Virus record (IMG/VR): IMGVR_UViG_3300035185_000031
Origin: an uncultured virus (IMG/VR IMGVR_UViG_3300035185_000031)
Taxonomy: Duplodnaviria > Heunggongvirae > Uroviricota > Caudoviricetes
DNA length: 62,987 bases
Direction: 5' to 3' (one strand)
The notes under the pieces: generated by a model
Databases searched by the model: none
Seen by the model: the letters and a program-made list of their open reading frames with translations, nothing else
What the model was told of the DNA's origin: nothing
In this document: positions 3,534 to 56,697 of the stretch, piece by piece
How positions within the stretch are numbered: the first letter of the stretch is position 1
How the letters are laid out: every line of letters starts with the position of its first letter
Translations under genes and position numbers: made by a program

Positions 3534-3706
3534 TTGCCCATCTCCGTGTTCAGCTTCTTGAGCTGTGTGGCGATCTCTTCCAACGCCCTCGTCTGCCGCG
3601 AAGCGAAACTCGACGGAGGCGGGTTGGGGGCCGCCTGTACTTCCGCGGTCTGGTGAAAAGCCCAAACCGCAAGGACCCCCAGAACCAACAAGGTTCGATC
3701 TTTCAT
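3521..3706 (-). CDS. Small secreted/membrane protein
   Basis: Signal-peptide-like N terminus, coiled C terminus, coupled to its neighbours. Confidence 0.6.
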   Translation of the reverse strand: MKDRTLLVLGVLAVWAFHQTAEVQAAPNPPPSSFASRQTRALEEIATQLKKLNTEMGKCRR

Positions 3707-4359
3707 GATGCCTTCCTTCCTGAGCGAGTGAGGACCTCCACGACATGTGCTGCTTCATCCTCGGTCATGTCGACCAGCTCACAACCCCCTTCTCGGGCAA
3801 CGATGATCGTACCTCGAAGGGGATAAGGAGCCACGGAGGACAGCACTATGTTCTCGGAGTAGTTCGCAGGGAGCGCGTTCCCCATTTCAGACACCACGAC
3901 TCGGTACTGATCGCCAAAGCGATACATCTCGATGGGACCGTCAACCAGGGCTTGGAGGTTCGCAAGCGTTCGAAACGTATGGATGACCTCCGGATCCTTT
4001 CCCGGGGCCTTACGCACCACCCGAATGCACTTCTTCTTGATCAGATGGAGCAGGGTGTCTCCGTTGGGAACTGGGAACCAGAGTAGGTCCTCGTCACAAG
4101 CTAGTAGATGAGCCCCCACACCCACACAGTCTCCGGGGCCGAGCTTCCGAAGCCCCAAGCGCTCGTGCATACCACCGTGCACATTGAAGGCGGCCAACAC
4201 CTGAGCGCCGTAGAAGGGTGGGGTGAGCCCTCCCGAGTCCTCCTCGGAGAAGACGACGTCGTATAGATCTGGGTCGACGAACGTTCTCCCCGAGGAAGCA
4301 AGAGCGCGCTGCTCTTCGGTCATAGCATCGTGGTTTGCATAAATCACGTAGGTCTGCAT
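3703..4359 (-). CDS. YodL-like N-domain fused to DUF3846-like C-domain
   Basis: FN...R.L..GD.V in the N half; PGK.PEV....TL.NLQALVDG.IE...GTII in the C half. Confidence 0.6.
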   Translation of the reverse strand: MQTYVIYANHDAMTEEQRALASSGRTFVDPDLYDVVFSEEDSGGLTPPFYGAQVLAAFNVHGGMHERLGLRKLGPGDCVGVGAHLLACDEDLLWFPVPNGDTLLHLIKKKCIRVVRKAPGKDPEVIHTFRTLANLQALVDGPIEMYRFGDQYRVVVSEMGNALPANYSENIVLSSVAPYPLRGTIIVAREGGCELVDMTEDEAAHVVEVLTRSGRKAS

Positions 4360-5713: not shown

Positions 5714-6078
5714 GCAGCCACCTTCTGAGCGACCTTGGCCGCTTCCTTGGCGTTGGCGATGGCCGCGAGCTGCCCCGCGTATTTGAGCACCCGAGCACGG
5801 CCCTGCTGAAGGTGCTTGCCTGAGAGGGACTTGCCCTTGAGGCACCACTTCGCGAGATAGGTGCAGTAGTTCGAGTCCGGCTTGTTGAAGCCGACGTTGT
5901 TCGTGTGCTTGGTCACGTGCGATTGCTTCTCGTCCGCAGTCTGGCGAGCGTAGATCGCCACCAGCGCCCGCTCCACGGCCTTGTCGCTCTTCAGAAGAAG
6001 ATCGCGAATGCTCGCAGCGGAGTGCTTGGAGGATTGTCCCTGTTTCTTCGTGGCCTTGGGGCCTTGCTCTTCCTTCAT
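5710..6078 (-). CDS. Phage hypothetical protein
   Basis: AVERALVAIYARQTADE...NNVGFNKPD...KYAGQL; promoter directly upstream. Confidence 0.8.
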   Translation of the reverse strand: MKEEQGPKATKKQGQSSKHSAASIRDLLLKSDKAVERALVAIYARQTADEKQSHVTKHTNNVGFNKPDSNYCTYLAKWCLKGKSLSGKHLQQGRARVLKYAGQLAAIANAKEAAKVAQKVAA

Positions 6079-6084
6079 GCTCTA

Positions 6085-6113
6085 ACCCTATCGCATAGAT
6101 TAGGGATAGTCAA
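6085..6113 (-). promoter_or_regulatory. sigma70-like promoter, probably leaderless transcript
   Basis: TTGACT-17bp-TAGGGT-6bp-ATG. Confidence 0.75.
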
Positions 6114-6136
6114 GAAGAGGAGAGAAAAAAGATCCG

Positions 6137-6205
6137 TTCCCTACCTTCACCTACATTGCACAGAAGGGGTTGTCGCCTGCGGCGGACGGCTAGACCATAG
6201 GGGAA
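6137..6205 (+). promoter_or_regulatory. Predicted three-way-junction 5' leader sequestering the spermidine synthase RBS
   Basis: UUCCCUA pairs with UAGGGGAA (RBS, next to AUG); internal stems CCUUC/GAAGG and GUUGUCGCC/GGCGGACGGC. Confidence 0.4.
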
Positions 6206-7167
6206 TGGCAAGGCATGTGACGGACCCGACGGGGGCCCTTACGGGAGTGGAGACCATCATCGAAATAGGGGACGTCGTTCGCCACGTAGAGCAGACGCCC
6301 TACCAGCATGTGCTCATCGTTGAGACGAAAGCGTTCGGCAAGGCACTCTTCCTGGACCAGGTGTTGAACAGCGCAGCTGTGGACGAGGGCTTGTATCATT
6401 CGGCCTTGGTGCATCCTGGCATGTTTCTACACATGCGTCCCGAGCGAGTGCTCATCGGCGGAGGCGCTGAAGGAGCTACGCTGCGCGAGGTCTTGAAGCA
6501 TTCGGACATCAGACACGTAGCAATGATCGACATAGACGCGCGCGTAGTCGCTGCGTGCAAGGAGCATCTTCCGGAGTGGCATCAGGGCGCCTTCGAGGAT
6601 CCACGGGTGACGGTACTGCACCACGACATTCGAACGGCCTTGGACTACGAGGGCGAGTATCAGTTCGACGTGATCATCCTAGACCTGGGAGACCCTGCTT
6701 CATGCGCCGAGTCGCAACGAGGGTACACGCAGGAGTTCTTCTGGCTCGTCCGAAGGCGCCTAGCAGACGGGGGAGTTTTCGCCATGCAGGCTGGCGAGTT
6801 CATGGGCAAGGAAGGGGACAATTTCCACACGCTCTACGAAACCGTGCGCAGCGTGTTCCCTCACACGATGCCGTATCGAGTCGGCATCAGCAGCTTCATG
6901 AGTACATGGGGCTTCATCGTCGCGAGCGGACAGCCGCTCAACATGCGGGATAACGGAAAACTCCCGGTAGGAATCGAGCATCGCCTCCGTGAATCGAAGA
7001 AGCCCTTCCCCTGGTTCGACGCCCAAGGATTCACGGCAATGACGTGGCTACCCCCGCAACTCCGAGCGATGTACGAGAAGAAGCGTCCGGACCTGATCAA
7101 CAAGGACGACGCTAGGACTTTGCAACACGTCGAAGCTCCGGAGAGCTTGCTAGAGAGCCGCGCATAG
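6205..7167 (+). CDS. speE: Spermidine synthase / polyamine aminopropyltransferase
   Basis: TPYQ, FGKALFLD, DE..YH.ALVHP, VLIGGGAEGATLREVLKH, IDID, FDVIILDLGDP; start refined to ATG 6205. Confidence 0.93.
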   Translation: MARHVTDPTGALTGVETIIEIGDVVRHVEQTPYQHVLIVETKAFGKALFLDQVLNSAAVDEGLYHSALVHPGMFLHMRPERVLIGGGAEGATLREVLKHSDIRHVAMIDIDARVVAACKEHLPEWHQGAFEDPRVTVLHHDIRTALDYEGEYQFDVIILDLGDPASCAESQRGYTQEFFWLVRRRLADGGVFAMQAGEFMGKEGDNFHTLYETVRSVFPHTMPYRVGISSFMSTWGFIVASGQPLNMRDNGKLPVGIEHRLRESKKPFPWFDAQGFTAMTWLPPQLRAMYEKKRPDLINKDDARTLQHVEAPESLLESRA

Positions 7168-9081: not shown

Positions 9082-9296
9082 TACCCTTTCCTCCAATCCA
9101 GCTCGGGGACGAAACGGAAGGACGTTTCCTTCTCGGTTCCGTCCTCCGACACCTGACGTAGCTTGACGCGCAGGGCACCGGTCTCAGGCTCAAAGCCCAT
9201 GCCAAGCACCTCGCGCTGAACGTACTTCGGCAGCCTCGCTTCGGTTGCTACCTTGTCGGCGAACCAACGTGCCAGGCCCAACTCAGCGTTCGTCAC
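9081..9296 (-). CDS. Hypothetical protein
   Basis: Coupled small ORF. Confidence 0.6.
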   Translation of the reverse strand: MTNAELGLARWFADKVATEARLPKYVQREVLGMGFEPETGALRVKLRQVSEDGTEKETSFRFVPELDWRKG

Positions 9297-9823
9297 TCCT
9301 CCGTCTCCAGAAGGCGATTCAAGCGACTGAACAGCGCCTGCTCTCCAATCGAATTGGCTGAGTCCAACAGCCGAAACTGGAACTCCGGCTGCTCTTTGCG
9401 GTACATGGCCACGAGGTCTTCACGACCCTCGGCCTTCGCGGCCTCCACATTCGCTACGCGGTCCGCCAGCTTGAGGAAGAGGGACCAACGGACCATTGGG
9501 ATCAACTTGTAGGGACGCTGCTTGCGCTCCTTTCGATTCTTCCCCTTACCATCAGTCACAGCGTCCACGAGCATGGCGACGGCGTCGCCGAACTCACGCA
9601 CGAGGTCTTCCCTCGTGGTGTCCGTGTCCTCCAGGGTGTCGTGCAGATAAGCAGCCGCGATCAGTTCCTGGATCTCCTCCTTATCCGCCTCCGGTCCCTG
9701 AAAACGCTGAAGCAGAACACCTGCCACCGCGTCTACGTGAACCATGTACGGCTGCTTACCGTACTTCTGGTCACCATGCGCCTTCTCCGCGAAGGCTCTT
9801 GCTTTCTCTAGTAGTTCATTCAT
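9293..9823 (-). CDS. HD-domain small alarmone hydrolase (RelA/SpoT/Mesh1-like)
   Basis: A..AH.DQ.YG..PY..H...VA; AAYLHDTLEDT; FG..VA.LV..VT; KLADR..N. Confidence 0.88.
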   Translation of the reverse strand: MNELLEKARAFAEKAHGDQKYGKQPYMVHVDAVAGVLLQRFQGPEADKEEIQELIAAAYLHDTLEDTDTTREDLVREFGDAVAMLVDAVTDGKGKNRKERKQRPYKLIPMVRWSLFLKLADRVANVEAAKAEGREDLVAMYRKEQPEFQFRLLDSANSIGEQALFSRLNRLLETEE

Positions 9824-12689: not shown

Positions 12690-13499
12690 TCACAGCACGT
12701 CGATTTTGGTGATCCGAACCTTCTTGGGATCGAACACGGCTACCTCAGGAACGTCCTGCACCAAGAAAGGACCGTAGTAGATAACGCTATCGTAGCCTGA
12801 AGCCCGCGCCCCTCGTGCCTTGGCCTGGCTTTGCGTGACCAGCGGATTACGCACCGTGGCCATCACTGTGTAGACCTTGGGACGATATGGCTTCGAGTCG
12901 ATGCCCAACTCTTCCAGGTTGTCGTAAACGTAATCCGGCAGTCCTATAGCTGTGTAATTGAACAGGCTGAAGTCACCGCCGCCGCTAGATAGGGGTTTCA
13001 CCTTGCTTCCTAGAATGTACCCCGCGACGTCTCCGATAGTGTTCGCATCCAACCCCCCAAGATGCTGATCCCATTCAACAGCGGTCACGATCCCGTGCTT
13101 CTCCCCATAGGTGTCCCAAGCTCTATCCCCCTCGTCGTACAGCGCTTGCAGGAACGCCCCCGCGTTCTTGTTCTTGCGCTTTAGCTTGTCGATGACGTCC
13201 TTCGGGAACCCCTTGTTCCGATTCGCGTAGGCGTAGTCGGCAGCCACACGACGTGAAGGAGTCAGGAAGATCCCGCTACCGTAGTAGTCCTTGACCAGCT
13301 CGTCTCGGCTCTGCTTCAGATCGAACTTCCGGAACAGGCGCGTGGTGCCGTGATAGAGCTTCGTCGGCTTCCCCATCATGAGCCCTTCCAACCCCCACTG
13401 GGCAAGGTTCAGCTCACGGTCCTCTGGAAGATACCGAAGCGACCGCACCTGGCGTCGGAACGCCTCAGGGCGTAGCTCCAAACCTTCGACGATGAGCAT
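12690..13499 (-). CDS. ADP-ribosyltransferase-fold protein (ART-PolyVal-like) with shared N-terminal tag
   Basis: LYHGT..F..FD, YGSGIFLTPS..VA..YA, VY.V....NPL, GYDSVIY, EVAVFDP. Confidence 0.78.
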   Translation of the reverse strand: MLIVEGLELRPEAFRRQVRSLRYLPEDRELNLAQWGLEGLMMGKPTKLYHGTTRLFRKFDLKQSRDELVKDYYGSGIFLTPSRRVAADYAYANRNKGFPKDVIDKLKRKNKNAGAFLQALYDEGDRAWDTYGEKHGIVTAVEWDQHLGGLDANTIGDVAGYILGSKVKPLSSGGGDFSLFNYTAIGLPDYVYDNLEELGIDSKPYRPKVYTVMATVRNPLVTQSQAKARGARASGYDSVIYYGPFLVQDVPEVAVFDPKKVRITKIDVL

Positions 13500-13503
13500 G
13501 GGC

Positions 13504-14316
13504 TCAGACGGTCTTCTTCTTGAGATCCTTGCTCGTACGAGCGATGCTGTCCATCGCGGAGCCGAATGAACGATCCAAGTCGTACAACTCGTCGCGCGTG
13601 TGCTTGACGTCTGAGTCCTGATAGTTATCTGTCCACGACGTTCCCGAGGCATCGTTGTAGACGTCGGTCAACATCTCGTGAACCTTGCGCACCTTGACGC
13701 GGGCATCGACCAGGGCTTTGTCGGCGTCCTGCATGGCTTTGAACAGCTTCGAGGGTTGGACGATGGCTTCCCCCAGGCTCTCGCCCAAACGGGCTCTCAC
13801 GTCCTTGGGGACGTTGGAAGCGGGCACCTCCGTCCAGAGACGGAACTCGTTCGAGCGAACGGATGTCTGCTTGGCCTTCTTGGGATGTCCGCTGTCTGCG
13901 TACTGAACGATCATTCCCTTCCAGCCACCGTTCTTCTGCTGCTCTTTCGCCTTGAAGTAGATCTCCTCACCCCCGCGGAACACCTGCTTGTACCAGGTCC
14001 CCACGGACATCGAGCTGACCCCCTCAGAGACTGGGGACGCCTCCCCCATCATTCGCATGACCATGCGGCCTACGCCCATGATGGTGTTCACCGAAGATTT
14101 GAAGTTCTTGAGCTGGGGCGCGTACTTCTGCGGGTTCTTCTTGTAGAGATCGAGCGAGTGCTTCAACTGCCGAAGCTCCCTCTCTGTCGCATCGACAAAC
14201 CGCTCCAAACGGTTGACTTTGATCTCATCGGCCTCACGAAGCCTACGCGCCTCCTGAAGACTCGGAAGACGGGACTTGAGGCCAGCAAGCTCGCGGAACT
14301 CTTCGGTCAGGTTCAT
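13504..14316 (-). CDS. Putative head-packaged, protease-processed multidomain protein
   Basis: MNLTEEFRELAGL N terminus; [L/M/V]xE motifs clustered at domain junctions. Confidence 0.6.
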   Translation of the reverse strand: MNLTEEFRELAGLKSRLPSLQEARRLREADEIKVNRLERFVDATERELRQLKHSLDLYKKNPQKYAPQLKNFKSSVNTIMGVGRMVMRMMGEASPVSEGVSSMSVGTWYKQVFRGGEEIYFKAKEQQKNGGWKGMIVQYADSGHPKKAKQTSVRSNEFRLWTEVPASNVPKDVRARLGESLGEAIVQPSKLFKAMQDADKALVDARVKVRKVHEMLTDVYNDASGTSWTDNYQDSDVKHTRDELYDLDRSFGSAMDSIARTSKDLKKKTV

Positions 14317-15360: not shown

Positions 15361-15555
15361 TCAGTCCTCCCAACCGTTCTTGCACTTGGTTCGTTCCAGA
15401 ACCACCAGGATGTCAGGCCGCGGAAACGACATGTCCATGAGACAGAGCATCGTTCGCTGCTTCAGATCTTCGTGCGACTGAGAGGAACCAAGGAAGTGGT
15501 TGAGGTGTTCCCACTTGTTCGGGTTCTCCGGCTTGTACTCGGGCGCGTAGATCAC
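15361..15555 (-). CDS. Hypothetical protein
   Basis: GTG start overlapping the upstream stop. Confidence 0.5.
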   Translation of the reverse strand: MIYAPEYKPENPNKWEHLNHFLGSSQSHEDLKQRTMLCLMDMSFPRPDILVVLERTKCKNGWED

Positions 15556-15722
15556 TGAAGCCTCGTACGAGGATCTACAGGGTCGTCCACTACACTGATC
15601 ATGATGAACTGGTAGTCCTCCTCCAAAGGCACGGCTGCGGGTGCAGGAGAAGCCTTCTCGGGAGCGAGCCATCCCAACAAGGGCAACGAGGACAGGAACT
15701 GTAGAACTGCTCGACGCTTCAT
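15552..15722 (-). CDS. 56-aa peptide with Tat-like signal (not in ORF track)
   Basis: MKRRAVLQFLSSLPLLGWLAPEKASPAPAA...; coupled to genes on both sides. Confidence 0.6.
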   Translation of the reverse strand: MKRRAVLQFLSSLPLLGWLAPEKASPAPAAVPLEEDYQFIMISVVDDPVDPRTRLQ

Positions 15723-17612: not shown

Positions 17613-17808
17613 TGTAGATCCCTTGGGTTGCTGCTGCTACCTGGCACACGATGAGAGGCCCACCGTCCTCGCCTTGATAGATGTCGTCTTCTCGAAAAAC
17701 GGCTTCTCGAAACTCGGACCCGCCGTGAAGATACCAGCGGTAGAGGTTACCGCGTCGCACGCGCTTGACGAAGTGGCACCTATCCGTCACCTCCAGCCAG
17801 GTCTTCAC
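17572..17808 (-). CDS. Hypothetical protein
   Basis: GTG start coupled to the upstream stop. Confidence 0.5.
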   Translation of the reverse strand: MKTWLEVTDRCHFVKRVRRGNLYRWYLHGGSEFREAVFREDDIYQGEDGGPLIVCQVAAATQGIYSGKFFRPPASTAT

Positions 17809-18146
17809 CGCTTCTTCAGATCGTACTTCGAGAGCACGCACGTCTTGCAGATGTGCCTCTTCGCAGAGTCCCCCAATGCGTTCGGAGGTCCGAAGAGGAG
17901 AGCCCCAGGTTCCTCTAACAACTCACCGCAGGAGTCGCACAGGATCTGCAAGCCCCCGCGGGGAAGTAGGTTCCAAGCATCGATAGCCGCCGCCATCTCG
18001 GCTTCGTCGCTATCGAATCCCTGCTTCCCGAAACACGGTCCCGACAGGAGACAATCGTGACAGGACACTCCCACGATGTCAGGATCGAACTCGACGTTGA
18101 TCGACCTACACTTGGGATAGGGACACGGGAGCGCCTCGGGGATCAC
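17805..18146 (-). CDS. Lar-like (restriction alleviation) Zn-ribbon plus a second Zn finger
   Basis: LPCPYPKC...V.C.DC...GP...AIDAWN; CDSC...HICKTC. Confidence 0.7.
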   Translation of the reverse strand: MIPEALPCPYPKCRSINVEFDPDIVGVSCHDCLLSGPCFGKQGFDSDEAEMAAAIDAWNLLPRGGLQILCDSCGELLEEPGALLFGPPNALGDSAKRHICKTCVLSKYDLKKR

Positions 18147-18655
18147 GCGAAACGCCTCGGGCGGTACTCTGGGCGCTTCATGGTCTTCAGACTTTTCAAA
18201 AGCTCCTCGGTCACCTCGACGAGATCTGGCGGACCTGCACCGTACTCCATCAGCTCCTCGGCCGTCGCGTTCACCTGGAACTGCTTCATCTCCTCGTGAG
18301 CCAGGTGTCGTGCAGCACCCTCCTTGCCCATGGGCCCCAACTCAGGGTCGTCCTTCATGGGCATCTCCTCTTCGTCCCACCAGCGCTCGACGTTCTGACG
18401 CTGCGTCTCGATGGCCCGCTCGAAGGTGAGATCCACGAAGATGCGATCCCCTACACGCGGAAGGTGCTGCGGAACGTAGCGATCCTGCTTCCAGTTGACG
18501 TGCTGCATCTCCACACTGCTGCGAGAGAGGATGCAGAAGGGAGTCACACCGTCGCGAGAGTTCCAGATCAACTCACGTTCAGACCCGTCCTTGCTTGCGT
18601 ACTGCATCAAGCAGAACGCCTCAGGGTGATAGTTCCCCCTCGCGTCACGTTTCAT
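18143..18655 (-). CDS. Phage hypothetical protein
   Basis: H.EAFCLM.Y.....E.IWNSRDGVTPF...M.HV.W..D. Confidence 0.8.
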   Translation of the reverse strand: MKRDARGNYHPEAFCLMQYASKDGSERELIWNSRDGVTPFCILSRSSVEMQHVNWKQDRYVPQHLPRVGDRIFVDLTFERAIETQRQNVERWWDEEEMPMKDDPELGPMGKEGAARHLAHEEMKQFQVNATAEELMEYGAGPPDLVEVTEELLKSLKTMKRPEYRPRRFA

Positions 18656-18914
18656 TGATACCCGACTCCCTCGCAAGGCAGGACAACACAGCCCGCTGCA
18701 CCTGCTCGATCCATTCCGGAGGGAAGTGCTCCTGCACCATGACCTCTCCGACGATACGGCCCGTTGCGTGCGCCCACAAAGCGGACAGCTCTGCGTTCTC
18801 TTTGATGACCTTCGCAACAACCTTCTCGATCTGCTTCTGTATCTCCGCAAAGCGCGCTTCGCGCTCCTCAGGAGTCTCGTCAGGTTCGTGGAACGACGCT
18901 CCCCAGATCGGCAT
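18645..18914 (-). CDS. Hypothetical protein
   Basis: Start refined to MPIWG. Confidence 0.6.
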   Translation of the reverse strand: MPIWGASFHEPDETPEEREARFAEIQKQIEKVVAKVIKENAELSALWAHATGRIVGEVMVQEHFPPEWIEQVQRAVLSCLARESGINET

Positions 18915-19489
18915 CACGCACGCACCTTCGTGTAGTTGAGCAAGAACCGCCGATGGACAGAGAAGTCCCTGGGATCCAAGTAGGACGGAGGCAAGAACGG
19001 AGGGAGATAAATCAGGTACCCCTGAAGACGACCAACCTCCTCGGCCTCCTTCCTGATCTCGTGCTGAACATCGAGGGCTGCTTCTTTCGCCCACACCTCC
19101 TCAGGATCCGCCTCCTCGTCTCCAATCCAAGGGACGCGCAGCTTGCGGGAGACTCCGGGAACAGTCGTGACCCATAGCACCGAGGGAACGAACAGGGAAC
19201 GGTCGTGCTCCTCGAATAGAGGGTCGCTAAGCGTCCAATCAGCGAGGTACTGGCAGAAGAGCCTCGCGTTTTGCTCTATGAACAAGTGCTCGGCTACAGG
19301 GAGATCCCAACCCTTTTGCTTCACGTAGTCGCGAAAGTTCTGAACGAGCAACTGGCTCATGGAGACGATCTTGGCCTCGTCGTCCGTCAGCGCGTGATTG
19401 AAAGGAACTTCCGCCGCCCGGGGAGCTTCTGCAACACTCCCCACAGCAGGAAGAACACTCAAGCCTTGGAGGAACGTACGGCGTTTCAT
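18914..19489 (-). CDS. Tat-signal protein with a miniature gp23-like capsid P-domain
   Basis: MKRRTFLQGL; TTVPGVSRKLRVPW, D.E......A.DVQHEI, GYLIYLP...LDPRDF...R.....Y.K. Confidence 0.6.
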   Translation of the reverse strand: MKRRTFLQGLSVLPAVGSVAEAPRAAEVPFNHALTDDEAKIVSMSQLLVQNFRDYVKQKGWDLPVAEHLFIEQNARLFCQYLADWTLSDPLFEEHDRSLFVPSVLWVTTVPGVSRKLRVPWIGDEEADPEEVWAKEAALDVQHEIRKEAEEVGRLQGYLIYLPPFLPPSYLDPRDFSVHRRFLLNYTKVRA

Positions 19490-19800
19490 GCGGACTCCAA
19501 TCGATCTCGGGTTTCATAGATGGCGTTCCGTGCTCGAATGACGGCTCGCTGGTCGCCGTTCATGCTCACCACACTAACGGAATCCGCAGCTAACTCTAAT
19601 CCGTCGGCACGCCCTCGAACCAAGACACCGTTCCAACGAGCCGCCGCCTCCTCGATTGTGGGAGTTTTCGGACCAGTCGCTTCGCAGTCCTTGCAGTGGA
19701 CCCAGTAGGAAGACGGCAGACCGAATGACCCCTTCATCACGACACGGGAGGAACCGCATTGGGGAAAGGGGCACGGAGCCAACGAGGTCAGATCACTCAT
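19486..19800 (-). CDS. Lar-like Zn-ribbon protein
   Basis: LAPCPFPQCGS...YWVHCKDCEATGP...EEAAARWN. Confidence 0.8.
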   Translation of the reverse strand: MSDLTSLAPCPFPQCGSSRVVMKGSFGLPSSYWVHCKDCEATGPKTPTIEEAAARWNGVLVRGRADGLELAADSVSVVSMNGDQRAVIRARNAIYETRDRLESA

Positions 19801-43053: not shown

Positions 43054-46000
43054 ATGGGAGCCGTACTCAAGGAACGTCCCGCAGGCTTCCGTATCTGGCA
43101 ATCCCAGGGACGCTTGCTCGATTCGCGAACCTTCGTCGGGGAAACTCTAGACGAGGTCAAGATCATCGGCAAGAAAGGCGAAAAGATCCTCGTCTGGAAG
43201 AACTACGCTTCCGGAGCCAAGCCTGTGTGGATCCAGCAGAAGAATCTGGAGAAGCACCTTCCGGACCTCATCGATCCCCCAGAAGGTACGACGGATGAGT
43301 ATCCACCAGTAGGAGACATCGGTAGCGGCGGGGAGCTGGAGCCTCTCCCTGGGCAGAACCAGGTGCCCGAGCTGTCCGGATGGATTCCCAGTGTCAAGCT
43401 CAAGAACCTCGCGAAGAAGCTGAAGGCGCAAGGCGTGAAGCCGCAGAACACTTTCTCGAAAGCGTTGGCTGCTGGCGAACCTTTGCCCAAGGAAGTACCG
43501 CCGTCCGCAGGAGGCGTAGACGGCCTTCTCGATCTCCTCGGGATGCCCAAGCCCAAGGAACCGGAAAAGCCAGAACCTGCGGCAGAGCCAGAACCGAACG
43601 TGACGAAAACTCCGGAACCGGAACCTTCGCCAAAGGCAGGGGACCAACCTGCTCTGCCTGCTGTCGAATTCTCAAACGCAGTCCTCAAGAAGGACGTCGA
43701 CTACTTCAAGAAGAACGCGAACAAGCTTACGTCGATGCAGGTGGATTCTCTTGGCTACTACGCGGAGACTGCGGGAGACGAGGGCGACTTCAAGACAGCA
43801 GCAGGGCTCGCGAGTGTTGCAGTCGATCACTACAAGAAGAAGGCAGAAGGGGCCACGCTGCCCGCGGGGAAGTCGGCGTACGCCGCACACATTCAGAAGT
43901 GGCAGAAGGCTCTGGAGGGCTACACGCTTGCCATGATCGGCGAAGCCCCCAAGGAACCTGACGTTCCGGTACCACCGCCGCCCGAGGTCAACGAACCCGA
44001 TCCCGATTTCGTTTTCGATTGGAAGGGCAAAGCTCCGGCTGGATACGAACCGCCATCGCCGGACGAGGCTTTCGAGTTCCAGAAATCTTTGGGGCTAGCC
44101 AAAGACGAGTTCGTGCTTCCCAACGATGAAGTCTACAAGGTTCTCGACCTCAAGCCCACCGAGTACGTGGATCCAAAGGGCGGATTCGTCATCGTAGCGA
44201 GTACAGGGAAGCAGGCAAAGAACAAGCAGGTCACTCCTACCGGGAACACGGTCGAAAAAACGATGTTCGGTAAGGTGAAGACGACTCCTGCGGCAAAGAA
44301 AGCGCCCCCCGAAGATCAAGTCCAACATCCCGAGCCTGAGATCTTCGTCACCCCAAGCAAGGTGACGAAGAAGGATCTTCCTCCTCCGGTCGCTCCTGCG
44401 ATACCGGAACCTGTAAAGCTCTCCGATCAGAAGAAGGCCGCTCTGGAAATGAAGACCCCCGAGGGTCTTCCAGAAATCGACTCCTTGAAGATGGTTGGAT
44501 CTGGCAACTTCCTGGGAGGCGCAGGGGACAAGGTCATCTACGAAGACGACAAGGGTCAGAAGTGGATGCACAAGGCGGCCTACGAAAAAGGAGGCGGAAA
44601 AGCCAAGCCCTACTCGGCTGCCGCGCAGCAGTTGTGGTCTGAAGTCGCTCGTACCGTGGACGACCAGCACCTGGTGGTAGGCGTAACCGAGGTCAACAAG
44701 AAGTTCGGAACGCTTCAGCCCCTTATCGATCTAGATCCAGATCAACCCAACCTAGCGAACGTCAACCCCAAGACGCTTTCTAACGAGGACCGCGCATCCA
44801 TCACACAGGAGCACGTGCTCGACTGGCTCATGAGCCAGCACGACAGCCACGGAGCCAACTTCGTTCGTCGCAAGGACGGTAAGATCCTTAGCGTCGATAA
44901 GGAACAGGGCTTCCGTTTCTTTGGCGAAGACGAGTTGAGTACGGAGTACGCGCCCAACTCAAAGCTCTACGGAGAGAAGCCCCCGTACTACAACGCCTTG
45001 TGGAAGGGAGCGGCGAAGGGGGACTACCCCATCGAGCCCTTGGTGGAGGGCACCAAGAAGACTATCGAAAAGCTGGAGAAGATGAGCACGGCCGCGTACA
45101 TGAAGGCCACTCGTCCCTACGCAGAGACGATCTTCCCAAAAAAGATCCAAGCGCAGAACGATCTCCTGAAGAAGATGCGTAAGCGTAAGCTCGATCTTCG
45201 CAAAGACTTCGAGAAGCTCATTACGACCGTCTACCAGTCGAAGGAGAATACAGATAAGGGCGTCTTCACTTTCGACAAGGGATGGGTCCCCGAAGGATCC
45301 GGACCCAAGAAGGTCAAGAAGAAGATCTCGTTCAAGCTATCCGAAGCTGATTCTCCTAACTCCGCTCTGAAAAAGGAGCCGTCGGGTTGGTACATTTCGG
45401 CTACAGGCTTCGAAGGGTTGAAGATCCGCCCTTACCACAACCCAAAAACTCCGACCGAGAAGGACGACTCGAAGCTGACCATCAAGATCCCGAATGACGA
45501 TCTCAACGGTCTAGACAAGCTGAAGAAGCTATTCGACGAACTCAACCTGAAGCCCTTGGTGAATCCACTCACAGGTAAAGCGGATCACATAGAGGGTAGT
45601 CAGTACATGATGATGTTCGTAGACAAGAAGGCTTTGGAAAGCGCCTCTACGGAGATCGAAGAAATCGTAGAGCCCAAAGGTATAGCTGACGCCCCCTCTA
45701 CTCCTCGGTACTTCACGGACGATCACGAAAACCCCAAGGCAACGGACAACGCGAAGGAGTTCAAGCAAGTCGCTAGTACGACCTTGGGCAAGTGGGGCAA
45801 AGGATTCAGCTCCGACGGTCCCTCGGTGGAAGGTTCTGTCATGCGCGCTAAGCGATACCGCACCGCCAGCGGTCAGGACTACCACTACGTTCACTTCAAG
45901 CTCAGAAAGCCCCAATGGGAGAGTCTCAAAGACTCTGGCAACGAGGGTCAGTGGAAATTCCCGCACGCTTCCTACGATTCGGAGAACGATGTGTTCGTTG

Positions 46001-47034
46001 AGGTGGGCGGTTACTCCGACAGCGTCTCGACTAGAACGTGGAAGATTGGCGACTCCGAGGTGCACTTGGCTACGGGCGCCCACAAGTACGCCTATATGGG
46101 TAGCGTCTACGTGAAGGCGCGTCCCAAGAAAGGAGAAACTGTCGAGGACGTCGTGAAGCAGAGTCTAGACACCATGAAGCCTGGGCTAGCCAAGGACGTG
46201 CTCAGGGATCCCACTCCGGAAGAGAAGGAGACGCATCGACTCAGCCGCATCTTGTGGGCACTGAGCCCTCAAAAAGCCGATGCTCTCAAGGAAGAAGATC
46301 GAACCGTGGAGAACCTCACCAGTATGATCAAGAAGATCAAGGGTGGGAAGGATGCTATGAAAGCCACGGTTCACGAAGAGGTCTATCCTGGATACTCGGC
46401 TCACGTTCAGAAGGGACGTCACAAGAAGCTCGCGGGAGGAAACTTCCGGTTCGCCTTCCACGGTGCTGACGAAGGCGCCATTCTATCGATCCTGAGGACA
46501 GGCCCGATGGGAATCCACGAGCGCAACCAGCATGGCATCGCCAAGACGGGAGTGAGCTACGAGCAGGACGTGAACAGCGGCTCCGGAGACGGTGTTTTAT
46601 GCCACACGGTGTGTGCTAGCGGCGACAACACCTCGATCAACGGTTACTCCTTCGCCAAGTCGTGGCAGGTGGTGATCCACCCGGAGGAGCTGGACCGGAT
46701 GGATACGTACATGTTCATGAAGGACACGTACGGTAGGTGCCGCGAGGACTCTCCTGATTGGACTGGACGCAAGAGCCTCGAAGCTCGCTTGGACGCTCAA
46801 CAGAAGAACGCGGCCACAACGACTGAGCTGTCTTTCCGCAAGGGGGTTCGCCCAGAGCGAATGATGCGCATCGTTGCCCCCTCAGAGTCTGCGCGAAAGG
46901 CCATGATCAAGAATGCAAGAGCTTCGGGTATTCAAGAAGTCAACGGGGTCCCCGTCGAGGACTTCTTCATCATCGAGAAGAACGCCGGAAAGATCTACGA
47001 GAAGTACATCAAGCCCGTAGTGGAGACTGACTGA
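43054..47034 (+). CDS. 1326-aa polyvalent protein: Pro-rich N region, HipA/PI3K-like kinase, C-terminal ART-like domain
   Basis: Kinase ~44460-45220: LGG...K.......KW..K, DWL...HDSHGANF, VDKEQGF. C-terminal ~46440-47020: FHG...IL..G....ER...GI...G.S...D..SG, ELSFR.G, G....NG.PVEDF. Confidence 0.75.
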   Translation: MGAVLKERPAGFRIWQSQGRLLDSRTFVGETLDEVKIIGKKGEKILVWKNYASGAKPVWIQQKNLEKHLPDLIDPPEGTTDEYPPVGDIGSGGELEPLPGQNQVPELSGWIPSVKLKNLAKKLKAQGVKPQNTFSKALAAGEPLPKEVPPSAGGVDGLLDLLGMPKPKEPEKPEPAAEPEPNVTKTPEPEPSPKAGDQPALPAVEFSNAVLKKDVDYFKKNANKLTSMQVDSLGYYAETAGDEGDFKTAAGLASVAVDHYKKKAEGATLPAGKSAYAAHIQKWQKALEGYTLAMIGEAPKEPDVPVPPPPEVNEPDPDFVFDWKGKAPAGYEPPSPDEAFEFQKSLGLAKDEFVLPNDEVYKVLDLKPTEYVDPKGGFVIVASTGKQAKNKQVTPTGNTVEKTMFGKVKTTPAAKKAPPEDQVQHPEPEIFVTPSKVTKKDLPPPVAPAIPEPVKLSDQKKAALEMKTPEGLPEIDSLKMVGSGNFLGGAGDKVIYEDDKGQKWMHKAAYEKGGGKAKPYSAAAQQLWSEVARTVDDQHLVVGVTEVNKKFGTLQPLIDLDPDQPNLANVNPKTLSNEDRASITQEHVLDWLMSQHDSHGANFVRRKDGKILSVDKEQGFRFFGEDELSTEYAPNSKLYGEKPPYYNALWKGAAKGDYPIEPLVEGTKKTIEKLEKMSTAAYMKATRPYAETIFPKKIQAQNDLLKKMRKRKLDLRKDFEKLITTVYQSKENTDKGVFTFDKGWVPEGSGPKKVKKKISFKLSEADSPNSALKKEPSGWYISATGFEGLKIRPYHNPKTPTEKDDSKLTIKIPNDDLNGLDKLKKLFDELNLKPLVNPLTGKADHIEGSQYMMMFVDKKALESASTEIEEIVEPKGIADAPSTPRYFTDDHENPKATDNAKEFKQVASTTLGKWGKGFSSDGPSVEGSVMRAKRYRTASGQDYHYVHFKLRKPQWESLKDSGNEGQWKFPHASYDSENDVFVEVGGYSDSVSTRTWKIGDSEVHLATGAHKYAYMGSVYVKARPKKGETVEDVVKQSLDTMKPGLAKDVLRDPTPEEKETHRLSRILWALSPQKADALKEEDRTVENLTSMIKKIKGGKDAMKATVHEEVYPGYSAHVQKGRHKKLAGGNFRFAFHGADEGAILSILRTGPMGIHERNQHGIAKTGVSYEQDVNSGSGDGVLCHTVCASGDNTSINGYSFAKSWQVVIHPEELDRMDTYMFMKDTYGRCREDSPDWTGRKSLEARLDAQQKNAATTTELSFRKGVRPERMMRIVAPSESARKAMIKNARASGIQEVNGVPVEDFFIIEKNAGKIYEKYIKPVVETD

Positions 47035-56372: not shown

Positions 56373-56401
56373 ACCCTACCGTATATCTTTGGAATTGTCA
56401 A
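56373..56401 (-). promoter_or_regulatory. sigma70-like promoter
   Basis: TTGACA-17bp-TAGGGT-9bp-ATG. Confidence 0.75.
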
Positions 56402-56697
56402 GGAAGAGAACTGTTCGGATCTTTTGGTACCCGTTTCCAGCCCTTTGGAGGAGATTCGCCATCGGCTAGGGAGACTGAGAGTACCTGCCCGGGTCCGTAC
56501 GGATGCCGGCGTGCTGCTACGTGATAGGGACAACACGCAGGACAGTCACACTCTTCGAGGTGGAGGGTGACGGTGGTTTTGATCATGACCTTGGAGACCT
56601 GGAGAGGGACGTACGGCGTGTAGATCACACCCGACTTGGCGCACTCCTGCGCCTGTTCCTCAGTCATCAACATGTCGATGTAGTCGAATAGGCCCAT
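56398..56697 (-). CDS. Small protein with gp23-like C-terminal capsid motif plus Cys cluster
   Basis: SGVIYTPYVPLQV resembles gp23 (D/E)AGxxYxPYVPLQ; CDCPAC. Confidence 0.62.
   Translation of the reverse strand: MGLFDYIDMLMTEEQAQECAKSGVIYTPYVPLQVSKVMIKTTVTLHLEECDCPACCPYHVAARRHPYGPGQVLSVSLADGESPPKGWKRVPKDPNSSLP

Follow-up and report, generated by a model that had tools for sequence, protein, structure and literature searches.

A rare family of small, probably exported phage proteins derived from a T4 gp23-type capsid protein

The window analysed here comprises 62,987 nucleotides of an uncultured T4-like phage and corresponds to bases 51166-114152, reverse strand, of the 167,992-bp virus record IMGVR_UViG_3300035185_000031, which stems from a wetland metagenome and is rated 80% complete. 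Its minus strand encodes P0001, a protein of 191 amino acids that a first reading of the letters (hereafter the original prediction) had taken for an exported miniature of a T4 gp23-type capsid protein. Our analysis shows that P0001 is a divergent member of a small, rare and so far unnamed family, here termed mini-gp23, and strongly supports the origin of this family from a gp23-type major capsid protein. Membership in this capsid-derived family and export are, taken jointly, reasonably likely to hold for P0001.

The open reading frame (ORF) of P0001 spans positions 18914..19489 on the minus strand, exactly as predicted, and the translation runs from an ATG start codon over 191 residues to a TGA stop codon. 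All strings on which the prediction was built are present in the protein, namely MKRRTFLQGL (residues 1-10), TTVPGVSRKLRVPW (108-120), DPEEVWAKEAALDVQHEI (128-145) and GYLIYLPPFLPPSYLDPRDFSVHRRFLLNYTKV (157-189). The gene is tightly packed into an operon of small genes on the minus strand: its start codon overlaps the TGA of an upstream gene for a Lar-like protein of 104 amino acids (ATGA), its own stop codon overlaps the ATG of a downstream ORF of 89 codons (TGATG), and a Shine-Dalgarno (SD) sequence, GGAG, is located 5 nt ahead of the start codon. Given the coupled overlaps on both sides, the SD sequence, the relatives that were found and the confident fold obtained with the family alignment, P0001 is a real, translationally coupled accessory gene.

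The record contains a single full gp23-type capsid gene, encoding P0002 (502 amino acids; Pfam Gp23, E = 7.2e-73), and no capsid gene of the PF05065 type. More than 1400 proteins are related to P0002 at E<=1e-10, with identities of 73-94% among the 120 matches listed. In a single BLASTP comparison residues 161-188 of P0001 aligned with residues 459-486 of P0002 (11 identities in 28 positions, E = 1e-4), and a second, collinear piece paired residues 118-152 with 254-299 (E = 0.16). A hidden Markov model (HMM) of the capsid clade recognised the C-terminal piece of P0001 with E = 1.9e-4. Taken alone, the protein would appear to resemble capsid proteins beyond chance, weakly so, which is suggestive and not proof. 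NCBIfam yielded nothing for P0001, a word-seeded search of 5.8 billion proteins returned the query itself and no other protein, and tblastn searches of GenBank phages with P0001 and P0125 gave no match.

The family became apparent in an exhaustive HMMER search of 1.84 billion representative proteins, which returned 19 proteins at E<=0.001: the query, 17 relatives of 86-279 amino acids, and one protein of 1452 amino acids. The relatives were matched with E-values from 4e-19 to 7e-4 at identities of 27-45%, and all 17 representatives are metagenomic. The best of them, P0122, aligned with residues 1-188 of P0001 (E = 4.4e-19); in most others the match is confined to the C-terminal 60-80 residues and lies at their own C-termini. 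The long protein, P0139, a match at E = 9e-4, contains DUF285 repeats, and the family profile recognised these repeats only with E = 0.52; since the match was not upheld, P0139 was rejected as a relative and excluded from the alignment. The resulting alignment, A1, therefore holds 18 family proteins, that is, P0001 and the 17 relatives, and no capsid protein. Its consensus reads M.RR..L...A.LP, NL..Y, C..FC..L.DWSLS, V.F.VM..P, RKLR..W, D....G.D.E.E and QAALEVQ.EIR, followed by the C-terminal block G..V..YALYLPP.L.P..LDPKDFSV.RG...RYAK. Many family members are far more capsid-like than P0001.

At the level of the family the relation to capsid proteins was strongly supported in several comparisons. 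When the A1 profile was compared by hhalign with A2, an alignment of 22 proteins of the phage's own capsid clade, a probability of 98.8 and an E-value of 6.8e-17 were obtained, and the C-terminal half of A1 alone matched the capsid clade with E = 5.5e-18 over 96 columns. A greedier alignment extended over 120 columns and capsid residues 241-490, with one long gap at ~321-446. Among protein sequences in the PDB, the A1 profile gave four matches up to E = 10, all of them T4-type gp23 (8t9r, 6uzc, 5vf3 and 8gmo; E = 5.2e-7 to 1e-6), which place profile positions 128-178 on gp23 residues 256-306. Conversely, the capsid-clade HMM recognised 11 of the 18 members at E<1e-6, each in two collinear pieces, and in all members with two matched pieces these map to capsid residues ~255-325 and ~451-495. 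Pfam Gp23 (PF07068) matched seven of the 18 members singly (best E = 1.5e-12), and PHROG 138, 'major head protein', matched six; it is the sole PHROG found across the 18. Within the phage's own genome, the A1 profile retrieved P0001 (E = 1e-56) and, as two pieces (E = 2.2e-14 and 3.8e-7), the true capsid protein P0002. These comparisons bear out the prediction of a miniature gp23-type protein in which the gp23 segments follow each other in their original order and the A domain is missing, the collinear pieces lying on either side of the ~321-446 gap. The following elements were delineated in P0001, all on the minus strand:

19424..19489, minus strand: Tat-type (twin-arginine translocation) signal by motif, residues 1-22, MKRRTFLQGLSVLPAVGSVAEA, with KRRTFLQ, 15 mildly hydrophobic residues and AEA before Pro23
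19244..19381, minus strand: family-specific two-helix hairpin, residues 37-82 (helices 37-59 and 65-82, predicted local distance difference test (pLDDT) 92-94; consensus C..FC..L.DWSLS)
19130..19180, minus strand: return strand before the spine helix, residues 104-120, LWVTTVPGVSRKLRVPW (capsid ~263-278 by hhalign; strand 113-116 in the model)
19037..19105, minus strand: counterpart of the P-domain spine helix, residues 129-151 (helix 129-151 in the model; E144 invariant, R146 near-invariant)
19022..19036, minus strand: junction VGRLQ, residues 152-156, in place of ~125 capsid residues (~321-446), the A domain
18923..19021, minus strand: C-terminal P-domain beta-hairpin and P loop, residues 157-189, GYLIYLPPFLPPSYLDPRDFSVHRRFLLNYTKV (capsid 455-487; P163, P173 and R180 invariant)

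The P domain, consisting of the spine helix and the beta-sheet with the P loop, is thus present in P0001. The A domain, the part of the HK97 fold that builds the core of the capsomer, is exchanged for a linker of 4-10 residues across the family, and P0001 has no counterpart to capsid residues ~321-446. Beyond what had been predicted, the insertion (I) domain is gone as well: nothing in P0001 aligned to capsid residues ~110-250, and the second linker strand alone is kept. The prediction had foreseen neither the helical hairpin, specific to the family, that makes up the N-terminal half nor the presence of three such genes in the phage. With the domain names used in the parts of PMC9546572 that were available, the return strand corresponds to 'I-domain linker 2' and is the equivalent of the E loop; according to the same excerpts, the T4 insertion domain is attached through two linkers, which take the place of the E loop of HK97. 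P0001 lacks the short acidic helix that precedes the spine helix in the family and in gp23, which leaves a gap of ~12 columns. In T4 gp23, residues 268-287 surround this short acidic helix, through which capsomers are in charge contact with each other, residues 457-461 are located at the P loops of the quasi-threefold axes, and His282 and Met284 of the P domain touch the portal whiskers, the acidic helix and basic strands providing capsomer-capsomer contacts (excerpts of PMC9546572).

Structure prediction pointed in the same direction. AlphaFold2 with the 18-row family alignment yielded a model of P0001 with a mean pLDDT of 80.3 and a predicted template modelling score (pTM) of 0.74, whereas prediction from the single sequence reached a pLDDT of 38.0, such that a confident fold was obtained only with the family alignment. 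The model comprises helices at residues 37-59, 65-82 and 129-151 and strands at 113-116, 157-165 and 183-189, the hairpin being followed by a single long helix and a small sheet. A fold search with this model ranked T4 gp24 first of 48,161 chains, the alignment starting at model residue 53; the next ranks were taken by encapsulins, a Pyrococcus virus-like particle, the SaPIbov5 procapsid, lambda, HK97, phiKZ and others, and 26-28 of the best 50 rows were capsid or encapsulin entries by title. The original prediction had staked itself on a profile or structural match to the gp23 family, and both kinds were found, the profile matches described above and gp24 at the top of the fold search. In the ESM Atlas, feature scores stayed below 0.9 (best 0.88) and structure template modelling (TM) scores below 0.4; two clusters of Tat substrates at 0.83 remained below the bar.

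The hairpin carries a conserved CxxxC face, present in most relatives, of which P0001 has one cysteine, and a DWSLS motif, both specific to the family. Its profile had no significant match to the N-terminal helices of capsid proteins (E = 0.38-0.63), though the structural alignment with gp24 starts within the hairpin.

Ahead of the hairpin, residues 2-8 of P0001 (KRRTFLQ) fit the n-region motif Z-R-R-x-hydrophobic-hydrophobic; the Tat consensus is S/T-R-R-x-F-L-K. The hydrophobic region, FLQGLSVLPAVGSVA, has a mean Kyte-Doolittle value of 1.53 and is followed by AEA before P23. The pattern RRx(F/L/V/I)(L/I)(K/Q), with the two arginines at residues 3-4, is found in 11 of the 18 members and in a second copy of the gene described below (paralog 2), and five of the seven members without it are fragments that start downstream (86-88 amino acids, or located on contigs of 0.9-2.8 kb). 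The signal-bearing members share 15 mildly hydrophobic residues with mean Kyte-Doolittle values of 1.5-2.3, and by eye most members end the signal with a lysine-containing basic c-region and an AxA-like site (KEAKA, KEAEA, KPANA, SAKA). As to the twin-arginine signal claimed originally, its motif, hydrophobic stretch and AxA-like end thus recur in 11 of the 18 members, and the Tat model of Pfam stayed below its cut-off, with no match by any Tat model of NCBIfam. Judged by these motifs, there is a good probability that the N-terminus of P0001 is a Tat signal that would be cleaved after AEA and would direct a folded, acidic domain of ~165 residues to the periplasm. In the member P0127 an extra RKLRAKW return-strand motif follows right behind the signal peptide, at residues 26-49 (capsid-clade HMM positions 259-282, E = 4.7e-5).

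The genome of the phage holds two further intact mini-gp23 genes, both outside the window, which brings the total to three diverged copies, and within the window a shorter ORF with a related N-terminus:

G000:C1 143142-143852 (L011:5142-5849), plus strand: paralog 2, 236 amino acids, family profile E = 1.2e-28, signal MDRRSVLKF...
G000:C1 119450-120028 (L012:4450-5025), plus strand: paralog 3, 192 amino acids, family profile E = 2.8e-6, directly after the ThyX gene, no signal
15552..15722, minus strand: ORF of 56 amino acids, MKRRAVLQFLSSLPLLGWLAPEKA... (MKRRAVLQFLSSLPLLGWLAPEKASPAP...), family profile positions 1-33, E = 5e-5, with a twin-arginine signal and no capsid-like part

Paralog 2 is 27% identical to P0001 and was recognised by the capsid-clade HMM with E = 9e-11. 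From its sequence, the 56-residue ORF could be what is left of a fourth copy, or it could encode a small peptide for export. A separate observation concerns an ORF of 99 amino acids at 56398-56697 on the minus strand, in which GVIYTPYVPLQVS is close to the capsid sequence GFVWAPYIPLQVT (Pfam Gp23 positions 313-335, E = 0.019); it may be another capsid scrap or a product of chance. In addition, a protein of 238 amino acids without a known family (G000:C1:141090-141806, plus strand; L011:3090-3803) starts with the twin-arginine signal MDRRSFLLGAVSIPVAGSAGAKA (MDRRSFLL...). Its gene is located 1.3 kb upstream of paralog 2, beside genes for a ribonuclease of 600 amino acids with RNB and double-stranded RNA-binding (dsRBD) domains and for a protein with a HAD_SAK_2 'RNA repair' domain.

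Outside this genome the family is rare. A second protein search with the family alignment as query retrieved six of the 18 known members and nothing new. Pattern scans of IMG/VR viral contigs with an alignment A3, P0134, paralog 2 and P0001 did not find the family, nor did an A3 pattern scan of 185,579 species, each represented by one genome. A tblastn search of 50,697 GenBank phage records with the member P0127 matched 1957 records at a query coverage of at most 31%; the annotated ones among the 25 matches listed are gp23, major capsid or major head proteins, except for one 'hypothetical protein'. As none of the 1957 records reaches 80% query coverage, no cultured phage in this collection carries the full mini form. 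Two metagenome loci with genes of the P0129 type, L013 and L014, were retrieved. In L013 the mini-gp23 gene follows genes for gp32-like and UvsX-like proteins and precedes a dUTPase gene, and in L014 it precedes genes for a dUTPase and a 5'-3' exonuclease-like protein; an RNase-H-like gene is also among the neighbours at these loci, all names having been read from translations and not from family scans. Thus, mini-gp23 travels in DNA-metabolism and accessory regions of T4-like phages that differ in base composition. The UvsX-like frame of L013 is in pieces (L013:7165-9195, plus strand; 288 amino acids, followed by ORFs of 126 and 148 amino acids), and judging from this arrangement the gene looks like one interrupted by an inserted element.

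What might such a protein do? P0001 has a two-helix hairpin and a twin-arginine signal ahead of its capsid-derived core, and in the mechanism we propose it would be incapable of forming capsomers or shells, because the A domain that forms the capsomer core is missing. The Tat pathway would carry the folded P domain to the periplasm after cleavage at AEA, where the P-domain scaffold would act as a binding module at the envelope, in conflicts with other phages or with the host. Such a conflict role, most likely the exclusion of superinfecting relatives or another early role at the envelope, is the reading we favour, tentatively; an exclusion factor had also been among the roles put forward originally. 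In a more specific and rather doubtful form, the exported, shell-incompetent P domain would recognise parts of incoming relatives, such as ejected head proteins or peptides or the tail tip, and block entry or signal superinfection, with the paralogs tracking different rivals. A bolder variant would have the signal dock the domain at the Tat receptor and thereby tether prohead initiation to the membrane. Roles beyond those named in this text retain a substantial minority of the probability. Several features would suit a conflict gene: diverged paralogs, a rare and patchy distribution, and small non-structural neighbours beside Lar-like proteins. According to an excerpt of PMC13128918, T-even phages exclude relatives at the step of DNA entry, and a periplasmic host effector that is exported by Tat or Sec and blocks entry has been described there. 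A periplasmic DNA trap based on charge, like the HXS effector in the same excerpt (PMC13128918), was considered and set aside as unlikely because the mature parts are acidic, with a pI of 5-6.8 in 17 of the 18 members.

Several results weigh against this reading, both as to capsid descent of P0001 and as to its export and place of action. Pfam Gp23 did not match P0001 at E<=10, P0001 had neither a PHROG match (no families at E<=10) nor a sequence match in the PDB, and its direct similarity to the capsid protein is marginal, with E-values of ~1e-4 from single comparisons. Moreover, Foldseek searches with the model remained without a match, the best E-values being 1.6 for the PDB and 0.28 for BFVD. 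On the side of the signal, the Pfam model TAT_signal (PF10518) scored P0001 with E = 0.09 and 13.2 bits, below its cut-off of 22.7, it was seen in only two of the 18 members at E<=1, and NCBIfam Tat models of the TIGR01409 type matched none of them. P0123, which has a different N-terminus, and paralog 3 lack a signal, and P0129 is perhaps signal-less too, having a hydrophobic remnant alone also if translation is taken from the first possible start in L013; the core is thus able to function in the cytoplasm as well. Finally, many members have preserved well the acidic helix and basic strands, the surface motifs through which T4 capsomers touch each other; a capsid-related partner fits this better than an envelope target, and the kept surface and portal-contact motifs together with the signal-less members both fit a capsid-related partner in the cytoplasm.

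One way to accommodate such a partner is a membrane-tethered helper of head assembly, in which the hydrophobic twin-arginine N-terminus would dock at the inner membrane, the Tat receptor being a conceivable site, and export would not be completed. The P domain would then bind the portal or the first capsid subunits from the cytoplasmic face, in a role comparable to that of gp40 and the membrane-bound portal initiator of T4. T4 proheads begin on a membrane-bound portal and need the chaperone gp40, as described in part of PMC9958956. Many members retain the motifs for portal and capsomer contacts (DL.A.HG.D.E.E and RKLRA.W), and there are members without a signal. In L013 the mini-gp23 gene stands after the UvsX-like gene, a place which we take to match that of gene 40 next to uvsX in T4. 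However, a helper appears unlikely, because a signal with its twin arginines at the cytoplasmic end orients the protein such that the C-terminal domain lies outside the cytoplasm, most members retain AxA-like cleavage sites, P0001 lacks the HG.D/acidic-helix segment, and rarity among more than 1400 capsid relatives ill suits an essential assembly factor. A cytoplasmic capsid mimic, acting either as a blocker of a capsid-sensing host defence or as a poison subunit that caps the growing shells of related rival phages, is quite unlikely; the original prediction had spoken here of a decoy or assembly inhibitor. It would explain why elements of the capsid periphery are kept and the capsomer-closing part is missing, it would suit paralog 3 and P0123 with their missing signals as well as the likely anti-defence neighbours (the Lar-like proteins and an ADP-ribosyltransferase (ART) domain), and it has a precedent in SaPIbov5 Ccm, whose procapsid entry occupies rank 5 in the fold search and which is reportedly a size-redirecting capsid homologue that interferes with assembly. 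Yet the export-type signal of 11 of the 18 members would take the protein away from capsids and from known capsid sensors, the mimic of a sensed part would be expected to trigger the defence and not to silence it, and a poison subunit would damage the phage's own heads too.

Two more explanations would deny the protein a function or an ancestry in the capsid. That P0001 is a functionless, decaying fragment of a duplicated capsid gene might be suggested by its low and patchy similarity to the capsid protein and by the signal-only ORF of 56 amino acids and the PYVPLQV ORF of 99 amino acids, which look like debris. This is very improbable and close to refuted: 17 relatives share the junction, the added N-terminal hairpin and the signal, the reading frame is unbroken and coupled at both ends to the neighbouring genes, the family co-variation yields a confident fold, and there are three intact paralogs. 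Likewise, the silence of Pfam Gp23 on P0001 and the lack of a capsid match in Foldseek would suit an unrelated small secreted protein with a gp23-like C-terminus by chance. At the level of the family, this is refuted by the profile-profile matches (6.8e-17 and 5.5e-18) in two collinear segments, by PDB sequence matches to gp23 only and by gp24 at rank 1 of 48,161, and we give it next to no probability.

The surroundings of P0001 are those of an accessory region. The plus-strand half of the window represents a replication and recombination module with genes for a DnaB-like helicase, a primase, a UvsX-like recombinase, an exonuclease, a RuvC-like resolvase and a ParB-like nuclease. The minus-strand half contains mostly small genes without a known family, in addition to genes for a UvrD-like helicase, two Lar-like zinc-ribbon proteins and proteins with ART-PolyVal, HD and DUF3846 domains. 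Given this gene content, P0001 belongs to the accessory region of a T4-like genome, well away from the genes for the head. The neighbours and accessory genes are the following:

19486..19800, minus strand: upstream neighbour, Lar-like zinc-ribbon protein, 104 amino acids (Pfam Lar_restr_allev, E = 6.6e-6; TIGR03655, E = 2.8e-8; both under the cut-off)
18645..18914, minus strand: downstream neighbour, 89 amino acids from the ATG at 18914, no family above the cut-off
12690-13652, minus strand: gene with an ART-PolyVal ADP-ribosyltransferase domain, accessory
9293-9823, minus strand: gene with an HD_4 domain, accessory
3703-4359, minus strand: DUF3846 gene, accessory
5905-7167, plus strand: protein with a spermidine-synthase domain, 420 amino acids, accessory

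The second Lar-like zinc-ribbon protein is encoded at 17805-18146 on the minus strand and is likewise below the family cut-offs; the two flank the operon segment that contains the mini-gp23 gene. P0122, the closest relative of P0001, ends in a CxxC...HxxxC tail that resembles the 104-residue Lar-like neighbour (E = 0.01 in a two-sequence search without composition correction). As a weak lead from these sequences, the link between mini-gp23 and a Lar-like zinc ribbon may be conserved. An ORF of 1326 amino acids at 43054-47034 on the plus strand lies between the ParB-like nuclease gene and small genes and has no PHROG match at E<=0.001.

At P0001 itself, the overlapping plus-strand ORFs are short and unsupported, no Rfam match or meaningful repeats were found on either strand, and sigma-70-like and terminator-like sites were not above those in shuffled sequences; no tRNA was found within the window. 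The T4 late-promoter word TATAAATA, and even ATAAATA, has zero occurrences on either strand of all 167,992 bases, and the late transcription signals of this phage must therefore differ from those of T4. The P0001 stretch is nearly unchanged on DNA contigs from two other wetland runs; inside the ORF there are two differences, at 19159 (Pro111Ser) and at 19184 (synonymous), which are too few to measure selection.

Among known proteins, gp23 and gp24 (PF07068) are the closest to mini-gp23, sharing with the family the homologous return strand, acidic helix, spine helix and P-domain hairpin with P loop; gp24 in particular is the best structural match and likewise an extra capsid-derived gene in a T4-like genome. 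In contrast to these proteins of ~500 amino acids, P0001 has 191 and lacks the A domain, the insertion domain and the N-terminal prodomain, in place of which it carries a twin-arginine signal and a new hairpin. Mini-gp23 genes also differ in being located among non-structural genes, in being multi-copy and in being rare among relatives, and the proteins would not be expected to form capsomers. Mini-gp23 should not be annotated as a capsid protein, because both the A and the insertion domain, which are defining, are missing.

The Family 4 A-domain encapsulins (PF08967/DUF1884), compared here by their description in excerpts of PMC8346489, resemble mini-gp23 in that an HK97 fold has been cut to one sub-domain that stands alone. 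According to these parts of PMC8346489 they keep the A domain only (~100 amino acids), whereas mini-gp23 is the complement, all but the A and insertion domains; moreover, they are cellular (archaea and few Bacteroidota), cytoplasmic and paired with enzymes, whereas mini-gp23 is phage-borne and signal-bearing. SaPIbov5 Ccm (7rwz) is, like mini-gp23, a relative of capsid proteins that does not build the element's main shell. It differs in having a complete HK97 fold and in co-assembling into capsids, whereas mini-gp23 has no A domain and carries an export-type signal.

As to function, our guess at the likeliest class for mini-gp23 is that of accessory proteins such as Imm and Sp of T4, with which T-even phages ward off incoming relatives at the envelope. 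Imm and Sp are small envelope-acting exclusion proteins of T-even phages, and we know of no sequence or fold relation between them and mini-gp23. Neither P0001 nor the 18 members matched PHROG families other than capsid protein, including those named for superinfection exclusion. Both T4 proteins are mentioned as superinfection-exclusion proteins in an excerpt of PMC13128918. T4 gp40, as far as described in part of PMC9958956, is the functional analogue of the helper considered above, being small, virus-encoded and linked to both the inner membrane and the assembly of heads; in contrast, the topology implied by the twin-arginine signal of mini-gp23 argues against a cytoplasmic domain. A keyword search of the literature, which was limited and is no proof of absence, returned no description of a P-domain-only or signal-bearing capsid derivative.

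Mini-gp23 is a new, rare family among the derivatives of the HK97 fold and is like no described protein that we found. Capsid proteins with this fold are viewed as devoted to the building of shells, and the exceptions known are full-length paralogs such as gp24, size redirectors of satellites, encapsulins and archaeal proteins that consist of the A domain only. If exported, mini-gp23 would be an instance in which part of a virus's own capsid protein has found a new use outside the cytoplasm. The family may offer a handle on the partners of a free P domain, among them the portal, neighbouring capsomers, decoration proteins and head contents, as well as on the handling of superinfection by T4-like phages of uncultured hosts, and it would give structural studies of the contacts between capsomers a minimal P domain of natural origin.

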